Shown here: positions 15,780-28,201 of the stretch, in pieces | Position numbering within the stretch: position 1 is the first letter of the stretch | Layout: each line of letters starts with the position of its first letter | Assembly (NCBI GenBank): GCA_002269645.1 | Contig: NIVC01004261.1 | Coordinates: forward strand, 1-52,747 | Direction: 5' to 3' | DNA: 52,747 nt | Source of the DNA: Macrostomum lignano | Taxonomy: Eukaryota | Notes under the pieces: model-generated | What the model was told of the DNA's origin: nothing | Database searches by the model: none | What the model saw: the letters and a program-made list of their open reading frames with translations, nothing else | Made by a program: the position numbers and the translations under genes

Positions 15780-16787
15780 ATGACAGATCAGAAACTTAAA
15801 AAACTCTACTACAGCGACAAAGGATTCTTTGTAGGAAAAAATGCAGTCACCAAACTCGCAGAACTAAGTAAGGAACCAAAAGCTAAAGTAGAAAAGTGGC
15901 TCTCTAAGCAGGCTGTCTTTCAAGTCTATTTCCCACCAGTAAAATTTACAAGACCTCACTTTAGCATCTATAAACCTAATGAAGCGCACCAAGCAGATCT
16001 TTTGTTTCTCCCCAACGACTCAGGCTACAAGTATGCTCTTACAATTATTGACATTGCTTCCAGATATAAGGAAGCTCGCCCACTCAAGACGAAGAAGTCA
16101 GAAGCAGTTGCAGCCGCCCTCCAAGATATTTATAAAAACTCACCCCTTAGCTACCCTGAATCCTTTATGACTGATCCTGGCAAAGAATTCATGGGTGCAG
16201 TGAAATCACTTCTACATAAGCATGACACAGAGATTCGCTATGGCAGAACAAACTTGCACAGAGACCAAGCGTACGTTGAGAGATTCAATCTAACTCTAGC
16301 CAAGAGGCTATTCACTAAGCAGACAGCTGAAGAGCTGAAACTAAAAAGTGGCCAATACTATACCAAGTGGACAGACCGGCTCCCCACTGTTATAGAGCAA
16401 CTGAACAATGAAGTCACACGCATGACTGGATTGAAACCATCCCATGCAATTAAACAAGACACTGTCGAACTTAAGTCATCTCTTAGAACAGACACCTCGA
16501 ACTACCCTAAGCTTCCAGGAGTTGAATCACCATACATACTGACAAACTCTGAGTTTCTACGCTTTTTATATCTACATGGAGAGCTAGAGAAAGACACCAA
16601 AAGAAGAGCTACAGATCCATACTTCAGCCTTGATGTACATAAAATAGACAGACATTTTACCTCCGACTCCGGTGACTATTACTTTTTATCTCAGGCCTTT
16701 AACCCTAAATCCCCCACACGGTCATTCACTAGAGCTGAACTCCTAGTATACCAGCTGACACGGAAATTAATTAAAATATTAAAATAA
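15780..16787 (+). CDS. Retroviral-type (rve) DDE integrase
   Basis: HQAD, IIDIASRY, MTDPGKEF and YVERFN motifs (D-D-E intact); start MTDQKLKKLYYS. A -1 shift near 16748 would give the family-like ending ELLVIPADTEIN* (stop 16774). Confidence 0.95.
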   Translation: MTDQKLKKLYYSDKGFFVGKNAVTKLAELSKEPKAKVEKWLSKQAVFQVYFPPVKFTRPHFSIYKPNEAHQADLLFLPNDSGYKYALTIIDIASRYKEARPLKTKKSEAVAAALQDIYKNSPLSYPESFMTDPGKEFMGAVKSLLHKHDTEIRYGRTNLHRDQAYVERFNLTLAKRLFTKQTAEELKLKSGQYYTKWTDRLPTVIEQLNNEVTRMTGLKPSHAIKQDTVELKSSLRTDTSNYPKLPGVESPYILTNSEFLRFLYLHGELEKDTKRRATDPYFSLDVHKIDRHFTSDSGDYYFLSQAFNPKSPTRSFTRAELLVYQLTRKLIKILK

Positions 16788-16790
16788 AAA

Positions 16791-17248
16791 ATGACAAAGA
16801 TTGAAACCAGAACCATCAATAAACTCAATAAAATCATTGAATCAAAGAAACCAGGTCTTATATCAATAAAGGTGCCAAAGTAAAAGTCGATCCCGTGCAG
16901 CAAATAGTTCAATGTAATGAACAAAGACACAGCATCACAGATGAAAAGTCAGGAGGAATCCTACCATTAGCAGCTCTTATTCCGATCATTGCAGGCGCTG
17001 TGAGTGCCGCAGGTGGTGTAGCTGGAGGTGTAGCAACTGCTGTTAAAGCTGGGAATGATAGAGCCCACCAGCTAGAATTGCAAAAGATTGCAAGAGACAA
17101 AGGTATAACAATTAAGGCAGGAGAGGGCTGCCCTGAGGGCTGCCCGGATCGTGATGATTGTGAGAATGAAAATTCTATAAGCAAGTCTGACATTGTCAAA
17201 GCTATCATGACACTGCACAATGCTGGGTTTACAATAATGCGCATGTGA
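16791..17248 (+). CDS. Small virion protein with adenovirus pX(mu)-like hydrophobic segment (probably one -1 frameshift at ~16841-16880)
   Basis: KSGGILPLAALIPIIAGAVSAAGGVAGGVA resembles the adenovirus pX C-terminal GG-ILP-LIP-IA-A segment; a 30-aa ATG ORF at 16791 overlaps the open -1 frame. Confidence 0.55.
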
Positions 17249-17371
17249 TGAGGTTTAAAACCCCACTTTATCCAGCTTCATAAACCTAACACTACTTATA
17301 GGATGTAGAAACAGTTCAACTTTTCTATCAGGGTGGTCACCCTCAAAATTTTTTTTATTTTATAGAAAAAA

Positions 17372-26001: not shown

Positions 26002-26031
26002 TTCTTATTTTATTTTATTTTTAGTTAAAAA

Positions 26032-27317
26032 ATGAACGACCCACTGACACCAGTTTTCTACAAGATTAACAAGCCTATTTTGAGTGATATAGCACAATCA
26101 AAGCGACTCAGGTAAGAGTTCCCAGTCAGGAAAATCAGAATGAAACTAATCTTGGTCCTGGTCAAACACTGACATTTACATACAATGGATGTTCGTCTTT
26201 GGTTAGTGTGCACAGTCTTAAGAGCGGCTTCCATATGACATTTCAATTCAAGACAAAGGGTGGTGCGGATGCGGCTCGTGCTAACGTTGACAAGCATGAT
26301 GCGGATGTGGCTCTGATCAGTAACTTTTGGGCGTACATGTTCAAGGAGTTTAGTGTATCGAATGGGAGCACTGAGTTGGAGCGAATCGCCAACTTTGGAA
26401 TTGTCTATGACGCTCATTGTTTGATCGAGAATCCTGATTTTATTCAATTGGGAAGTGGTGCGGGTTTTATCGCAGATGAAAAAGAAGGAGACATCAATGA
26501 CAGTGGCTATAAAAAGAGGAAGAAGAGATACAACTATGCATTGCAAGGTGCTGATGATGCTGCTAAGAACCCGCTGTATCGGTCTGTTGATGTATTTGTA
26601 CCATTGAGATTCATGAGTGGATTCTGTAATACATTTAATCGACTGACTAGTAACTTTAGCTACACATTTAGACTGACTAGAGATGATCGCAGTAGAGTGT
26701 TGTGGACTGGGGCGGACCACACTGGGATGGCTGTGAAGCTAACCGGAATCGAGCTGTATTTGGAAGTCATTGAGCCAAAGACTGCACTAAAAGCAGACTA
26801 TCTTAAGGCAATAGAGAAGGACATTGATGTTGCATACACGGCCTACATGTGTCGAGATGAGCGAAACGAAACTAGAACAAACATCTGCATCAAAGAGGGA
26901 TCATGCAGCAATCCAAGGTATATCATTATTAATATGAGAAACCCAAATAGCATTATACGCTACATGCATGGAGACGTGCGGTCCATTCAGCATGAAATCA
27001 GTGATAATCTTTACCCTGCACTGCCACAAAATGGAGATTTCAGTCAGAACAAGATTAGCAAATTTTACAGCGAGTTAGTCGACTTGGCTGTGAAAGAGAA
27101 CAATGGAATTGCTATCACTGCTCTTCAATATGGAACTCTATATCCGATGTTTGGCGCTGATGTGTCTGCCAGACAAATGCCTACTGATAACAGCCCTGTG
27201 AATATCGTGACTAACATTGAAAGGACTGCCGCAACACCCGTGGACCTGTACATTATCTATGCATTTGAGAGGAAGGTGAAGCTTAACATGATCAACAATT
27301 CATCCAGTAAAGTTTAA
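26032..27317 (+). CDS. Double jelly-roll major capsid protein (one -1 frameshift near 26088)
   Basis: ~428 aa when joined (MNDPL...SD(N)STIKATQ...), beta-rich; VFVPL..MSGF, PRYIII, YP, YPMFGADVS, LYIIYAFERKV motifs in the expected positions; adjacent to penton. Confidence 0.85.
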
Positions 27318-27338
27318 ATATTTTTTTATGTAAAAAAA

Positions 27339-28201
27339 ATGGAAGCTATAGCCGAAAGACTAAACAACATTGTTTCACACTCTAAGGAGAGCATTCCTAT
27401 TACAATAACCGGGCGAATTAATGACTCAAACGGGATGTTTGTTGAAAAATTAGAGCAGGCGATTCGCCTGGATCCTGGCGCTAATTACCATGTCTATCTT
27501 AACGACTTCACTGGTTGGTCAAACGTTCCCAATGTGATGGCAGCAAATAATAAGTTTTATTACAAATGGAAAGGTGCAGCAGCAGACCCTGTGGTATTCC
27601 ATGTGAGCACGCAAAGTGTGGATACCTACAATAACTTTCTAGAAAATGTCTTTACTAAAAGAGGCCATTTTGAGACACCTGATGCGAGTAAGCCAGAGAA
27701 GAAACTTTCCCTGTCAAACTAACCTATGATCTCACTGTAATGAGAGTGGTCATGCAAGTTCACAAAGATGCGGAGGTTGAGTTTAAAGATGACACTTGGT
27801 ATAGGGAACTGGGATTCGAGAAGAAAGTTTATAAGGCAGAATCCGCGGCGCGGACCGCCACTCAAGCATCGGGGACTGTTAAAATGGCCCGGGAAAATGT
27901 AAGCGGTTTGTTCTTAGCACCCAATATTGCAGACATTGTAAAGGGTTTGAATATTCTAATCAGAAGCAATCTCAGTCTTGATTGGGTATTTAAGGGAAAG
28001 CGAACGAATATTTTGTACAACATCTCCAACTCTGTTGCTGGAGGACAGATGGTGGTAGAGAAACCAAATCCAGTGAAAAGAGTTGTATTGAGTAATAAGG
28101 AGATTCACGAGATTGTGCTACAGTTTGAGACTGAAGATGGGATGGGCGTTGATTTTAATGGGGAAGAGTTTGTATTGACGTTAATCATTGAGAGAATGTG
28201 A
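27339..28201 (+). CDS. Single jelly-roll minor capsid protein (penton) (one -1 frameshift near 27707)
   Basis: NVPNV..ANNKFYY, ILIRSNL, KRTNILYNI, VVEKPNPV, VDFNGEEFVLTLII motifs; ORFs 27339..27722 and 27740..28201 join by adding one T in a TTT run. Confidence 0.87.

Follow-up and report, generated by a model that had tools for sequence, protein, structure and literature searches.

Single-Base Gaps in a Young Polinton of Macrostomum lignano Fall Where Near-Identical Copies Differ and Are Likely Mixed-Read Consensus Errors

The Element, Its Genes and Its Setting

The stretch of DNA analyzed here (the window) comprises bases 1-52,747 of contig C4261 (NIVC01004261.1) in a Macrostomum lignano assembly of 764 Mb in 5269 contigs. 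It carries a Polinton/Maverick of 15,297 bp (14422-29718), which is bounded by terminal inverted repeats of ~690 bp and flanked by a 6-bp target-site duplication. Its features are as follows, with the strand where there is one.

14416..14421: left copy of the 6-bp target-site duplication (identical to the hexamer at the right end)
14422..15110: left terminal inverted repeat; compared with the right repeat, near-identical in the outer 270 bp and 79-91% alike in the inner part
15099..15758 (-): phospholipase A2 (PLA2)-like gene, open; PF08398, E 1e-13
15780..16790 (+): rve integrase, with a one-base gap near 16750 in its tail; PF00665, E 9e-10, 39.1 bits against a cut-off of 32.6
16791..17248 (+): pX-like core protein gene, with a one-base gap near 16870; PF05829, E 4e-7
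17372..21210 (+): protein-primed B-family DNA polymerase with an endonuclease VII-like insert and 11 one-base gaps; PF03175, E 3e-11; PF02945, E 1.5e-4, below cut-off
21298..21696 (+): adenovirus-like cysteine protease, open; PF00770, E 1.7e-4, above cut-off
21700..22441 (-): gene without Pfam match, broken by an 8-base gap near 22080; from open frames and comparison of copies
22398..23351 (-): gene without Pfam match, with a one-base gap near 22550; from open frames and comparison of copies
23368..24168 (-): A32-type packaging ATPase, open; PF04665, E 3e-6, above cut-off
24382..24771 (-): small open reading frame without Pfam match
24788..26001 (-): Q/P-rich protein gene, with a one-base gap near 25460 and an in-frame 3-base gap near 25960
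26032..27317 (+): major capsid protein of apparent double jelly-roll type, with a one-base gap near 26090; PF21738, E 1.4e-4, below cut-off
27339..28201 (+): presumed penton, with a one-base gap near 27710; no Pfam match, the label being that of an earlier sequence-only reading and fitting the position
29030..29718: right terminal inverted repeat; near 29450 one base shorter than the left repeat and than two contigs of the same insertion site
29719..29724: right copy of the 6-bp target-site duplication (identical hexamer at both ends)

Among the features that define Polintons/Mavericks, inverted repeats, the 6-bp target duplication, an rve integrase, a protein-primed B-family polymerase, a packaging ATPase and a cysteine protease were found. 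The polymerase is, by Pfam, of the PF03175 type expected of Alpha adintoviruses (43.3 bits against a cut-off of 25.8, on a 530-aa piece); the 1177-aa open polymerase frame of another copy did not return PF03175 in Pfam. Two modest signals, from Pfam and from an Atlas match of 0.97 to a DJR cluster with a low recognition value, agree on a double jelly-roll major capsid protein. At the polymerase N terminus, Cys and His motifs may resemble those of an OTU-like domain; Pfam and PDB sequences gave no match to such a domain in the polymerase, and its Atlas neighbors carried no names.

On its gene content, the element is assigned to the Polintons/Mavericks and appears nearest to the Alpha adintoviruses, as far as these are described in the accessible part of Starrett et al. 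(2021; PMC8502044). Both have an rve integrase, a PF03175-type polymerase, an adenain-type protease, a packaging ATPase, capsid genes, a PLA2-like gene, a pX-like motif and inverted ends. However, the PLA2X of the Alpha adintoviruses has a C-terminal pX, whereas here the PLA2 and pX Pfam matches lie in separate genes on opposite strands. With the "intact" vertebrate Mavericks, again as set out in the part of the source at hand (Barreat and Katzourakis, 2021; PMC8097293), the element shares a size within 12.7-24.6 kb, inverted repeats, a 6-bp target duplication and purifying selection on core and capsid genes, but gene order differs.

The inverted repeats are uneven. While the outer 270 bp are near-identical, the inner parts (14690-15110 and 29030-29450) are ~80-90% alike, and each can be read as a short frame of ~85 codons, the two translations being related. 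An age estimate from the repeats was discarded, as an outer part that is near-identical and an inner part 10-20% apart are incompatible with a single clock. In the non-coding parts, a tandem array of a 21-base unit (~7 copies, 24207-24355) lies between the ATPase and the next gene, and two 34-bp near-palindromes lie at 28617-28650 and 28677-28710.

To the left of the element lies a host gene (13121-14035 and 10556-10690, both minus strand), whose first exon, of 304 aa, starts at a distance of ~390 bp from the left end of the element. A contig derived from RNA links 13132 to ~10690, and the exon at ~10690 matches the OTU protease family weakly (PF02338, E 0.002). We take this spliced OTU-domain gene to resemble OTUD5, and the Polinton insertion may sit in its promoter. 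To the right, a 202-aa frame without Pfam match (31848-32456, plus strand) lies between short inverted repeats (32046-32069 and 32515-32538), and by its motifs is presumably a broken mariner-type transposase. The outer flanks (1-10500 and 33000-52747) are rich in microsatellites and in minisatellites of 17-51 bases, and one 28-base unit is present at both 9830-10600 and 46730-47440.

Inventory of Gaps in the Window Copy

The element belongs to a large family of near-identical copies. An 18-base end motif occurs exactly 359 times in the assembly (its reversed control, 0), which suggests ~180 copies. The polymerase stretch has at least 39 matches (391 candidates, of which 38 were scored); apart from one short match, these are 96-100% identical to it, and family copies are 0.05-3.4% apart (median 2.0%). 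The window was compared directly, without building a consensus, with the 19 best-matching other loci for the polymerase, with 21 loci for the right half and with 24 for the left part. The polymerase alignment has 21 rows, 20 of them the top 20 of the 39 matches, plus one. Two loci (L048 and L066) were excluded from the left-part alignments as partial matches, and among L022-L042, rows with too few anchors are absent from some gene tests.

Of the 19 gaps in the coding DNA of the window copy, 17 are of one base, one is of 8 bases and one of 3 bases. The sequence-only reading had counted about 15 frameshifts, mostly single-base deletions, which is confirmed, but it had overlooked the gaps near 21200, 22550 and 25960 (the last of 3 bases). 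Its ten polymerase frame changes all correspond to one-base losses relative to up to 20 other copies, in pairwise and in multiple alignment; they lie near 17470, 18220, 18350, 18460, 18670, 18700, 18800, 20320, 20970 and 21000, at most ~20 bases from where it had placed them, and an eleventh one-base gap (near 21200) lies at the gene's end. The shifts that it had read, or in the integrase tail suspected, to be -1 in five other genes are likewise one-base losses, most copies being one base longer in the integrase tail (18/18), the pX-like gene (18/18), the Q/P-rich gene (20/20), the major capsid gene (21/21) and the presumed penton (19/21). Near 22085 it had proposed a shift of +1/-2; the frame effect of +1 was correct, but the lesion is an 8-base loss near 22080, where 15 of the 16 covering copies are 8 bases longer and one copy 7 longer. 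This gap does not represent a clean collapse of an 8-base tandem unit. Both it and the 3-base gap are private to the window and of a size atypical for the error proposed below, and the 8-base gap may be real. The A run of the protease, near 21555, is also shorter in the window than in most copies.

The window polymerase contains no stop by substitution in 1262 codons scored, in agreement with the earlier observation that no in-frame stop is needed to read it, and in the other rows 4 such stops were found, in 3 of 20. Private substitutions of the window number 0 in the polymerase (3839 columns) and 1 in the rest of the aligned 15100-28260.

Gaps Fall on Columns Where Copies Disagree

A column was called disputed when two bases occurred among the other rows, each in at least two rows. 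Across the 3839 core columns of the polymerase, 3.4% are disputed and 9.6% lie within one column of a disputed one. All ten scored one-base gaps of the window polymerase fall within one column of a disputed site, nine of them exactly on it; the eleventh gap, near 18220, falls where the copies themselves vary in length (of 19 copies, 8 are one base longer and 9 are five shorter). Outside the polymerase, the same holds for 6/6 one-base gaps, against backgrounds of 14-36%. The competing alleles are synonymous at six of the nine window sites with codon data, and so resemble true SNPs.

The association extends to the whole polymerase alignment, in which one-base losses outnumber one-base gains by 108 to 10 and 51 of the 108 lie exactly on disputed columns. 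Counted by distinct column, the figure is 25/59 (p 2e-21, which, like the other p values, is optimistic because rows are non-independent, some being same-site contigs and one pair only 0.05% apart, and because the top 20 were chosen). About half (53/108) lie off shared-SNP columns, and those in other rows may be other errors or real. Rows with more private substitutions also have fewer one-base gaps (rho -0.64, p 0.002, n = 21 non-independent rows). Decay should add gaps and substitutions together, so that the inverse relation is the opposite of what decay predicts.

Four Contigs of One Insertion Site

The assembly holds what amounts to internal replicates of this locus. Contig C1527 shares both insertion junctions with the window, C2926 the left one and C2078 the right one. 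The four contigs of this one insertion site, which may represent haplotypes, a duplication or redundancy, carry different sets of gaps, and each break of the window is missing from at least one of the other three. At columns where C2926 and C2078 differ, the window is gapped in 5/25, against 1/3292 at columns where they agree (p 1e-10). C2926 and C1527 disagree at four sites where the window has no base; at the other 20 differences between these two, the window matches one contig 15 times and the other 5, interleaved. Gap sites of the window are also common to C3321, which represents another insertion site (8 sites), as well as to C2926 (5 or 6) and C1527 (3). The sharing with C3321 could reflect shared reads or the same conflict of alleles, or else gene conversion.

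The more distant flanks of the same-site contigs, which are rich in tandem repeats, differ by ~0.4-10% among the BLAST matches listed. In C1527 (L074, G000:C1527:16500-26000) the integrase is interrupted by a DNA transposon of 7086 bp, the inverted ends of which read CCC...GGG. The insertion has a 2-base duplication, and its 639-aa frame matches DUF4218 weakly (E 0.009). We take the transposon to be EnSpm/CMC-like; it is a real lesion in the haplotype represented by C1527. Relative to C1527 and C2078, the window lacks 89 bases at 28491 and 60 bases at 28634, in non-coding DNA with internal repeats.

Host Flank and Short-Read Contigs

In the host flank, the window has 0 gaps against two same-site contigs in 2602 columns (of ~3860 flank columns), although this is a weak test of the mixing step, as just 2 of these columns differ between the sister contigs. 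Short-read contigs from four runs of four studies were aligned to 11000-29000. Among the 12 length-difference rows listed of 86, seven correspond to window gap sites and one to the protease A run, and all four runs carry the longer form at these seven sites and the A run, several in single contigs at full depth. Three short-read contigs on the host flank (593-937 aligned bases) show 0 gaps. Short-read contigs pool all copies and drop rare variants, and they therefore support the longer forms at this locus without proving them. The share of sequence words recovered (0.75-0.81) does not discriminate between explanations. No RNA data set was on record as containing the sequence. One of the four runs contains RNA, as its contig joins two host exons; it covers the genes, spacers and inverted repeats of the element evenly, and carried-over DNA of ~180 copies could be the source.

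Explanations for the Gaps

Consensus callers can drop bases on mixed haplotypes. If one consensus was made of reads that came from different haplotypes of this locus as well as from other copies, two bases would compete in a column, neither would win, and the base would be omitted. Omission at disputed columns would always cost exactly one base and would introduce no stop codon. We consider it highly probable that the gaps of the window, which fall where near-identical young Polinton copies differ, arose as mixed-read consensus errors of this kind, and the frameshifts, although present in the assembled sequence, are very likely absent from the organism. The proposal of the sequence-only reading, a consensus error in a multi-copy repeat, is supported by the disputed columns, the same-site contigs, the inverse relation to age, the clean flank and the longer form in short-read contigs.

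Ordinary homopolymer deletion errors of raw long reads, uncorrected through low depth, would also give more losses than gains and A runs whose length varies between copies; moreover, rows that end near a contig end do have gaps off SNP columns, C2078 having 0/4 on them. However, the homopolymer setting that had been reported for several of the shifts accounts for few of them: only 2/10 window sites lie in runs of at least 3 (by the commonest allele), no more than the background of 21% of bases. The adjoining flank, with long A/T runs, is gap-free, and random errors would not strike SNP columns ten times out of ten. Raw errors are thus largely refuted for the window copy and a very unlikely source of its gaps, although part of the gaps in the other rows may be due to them. 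Genuine neutral decay biased toward deletions, in which some deletions were inherited or spread by gene conversion, could account for gaps common to several rows, including a copy at another site, and real lesions do occur in the family (the 4 stops in 3 rows, the 7-kb insertion in C1527 and possibly the 8-base gap). Decay would nonetheless have to produce 17 one-base losses alongside 1 private substitution in the aligned 15100-28260, place its gaps on SNP columns, leave the rows richest in private substitutions the poorest in gaps, and distribute gaps among same-site contigs in a patchy, non-nested manner; we give it very little credence.

Gaps on SNP columns in copies with close sisters would equally be expected if a host process deleted one base per mismatch when sister copies pair, in which case the gaps would be real and aimed at young repeats. 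Acting through frameshifts on a virus family that is spreading, such a host defense would parallel repeat-induced point mutation, with deletions in place of substitutions. We know of no repair pathway that removes one base at mismatches between paired copies, and a known artefact yields the same pattern. A cumulative process should also leave gaps in older copies, but no one-base loss is present in the rows that carry 17 and 26 private substitutions, and no listed short-read contig that bridges a site was seen with the short form (a weak point). Together these make a host deletion process extremely improbable. Restoration of the frames by programmed frameshifting or RNA editing, for which no support was found, has a negligible chance of applying, since the sites vary from copy to copy and other genomic copies are open through them in DNA, one for 1177 codons, which refutes it.

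The preferred reading, omission of bases from a mixed-read consensus, has a precedent. In protists, reads from near-identical copies of endogenous viral elements were reported to pile on one element and to give a false consensus with frameshifts and fragmented-looking genes (Bellas et al., 2023; PMC10120064). The same failure in multi-copy endogenous viral elements was already described, but that work, in the part accessible, deals with polishing by short reads and does not tie the errors to columns at which copies differ, whereas here column placement was measured and same-site contigs served as internal replicates. No description of the column-level signature, a base dropped at mixed columns, was found in the literature searched, including the accessible part of PMC5632298. 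Two questions that need no reads separate artefact from decay: whether gaps fall on disputed columns, and whether they become fewer with more private substitutions.

Selection, Intactness and Diversity of the Family

Purifying selection has acted on the family. Crude pN/pS is 0.15-0.21 for the polymerase and 0.03-0.33 for seven other gene stretches (0.17 in the major capsid gene), low values which show that selection on the genes was in force as the family expanded; being crude and within-genome, they are not comparable with the model-based values near 0.001 in the accessible part of Barreat and Katzourakis (2021). The element probably represents a new but unexceptional member of a virus group already known, one that has spread recently, and its biology is that of one more young Polinton family.

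As assembled, the element is not "intact" in the Maverick sense of having all core frames open. The polymerase frame of 1250 codons is open in 0/21 assembled rows, none of which would pass the open-frame criterion as worded in the portion of PMC8097293 at hand. As the family is nevertheless young and under purifying selection, open-frame surveys of "intact" endogenous viruses would undercount the most recent bursts in assemblies of this kind. For the locus itself, no break is common to all same-site contigs and no polymerase stop was found in them, from which it is plausible, with somewhat better than even chances, that the provirus is coding-complete in at least one haplotype and the locus fully intact. 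The private 8-base gap, which may be real, and the 7-kb insertion in C1527 weigh against full intactness.

In one copy (L017:5701-6900), the match to the window ends after ~21275 and is followed by a 400-aa open frame that is absent from the other rows. At G000:C975:123104-133240, two matches to the PLA2/integrase end lie 9 kb apart in opposite orientation, which suggests a rearranged or head-to-head copy.
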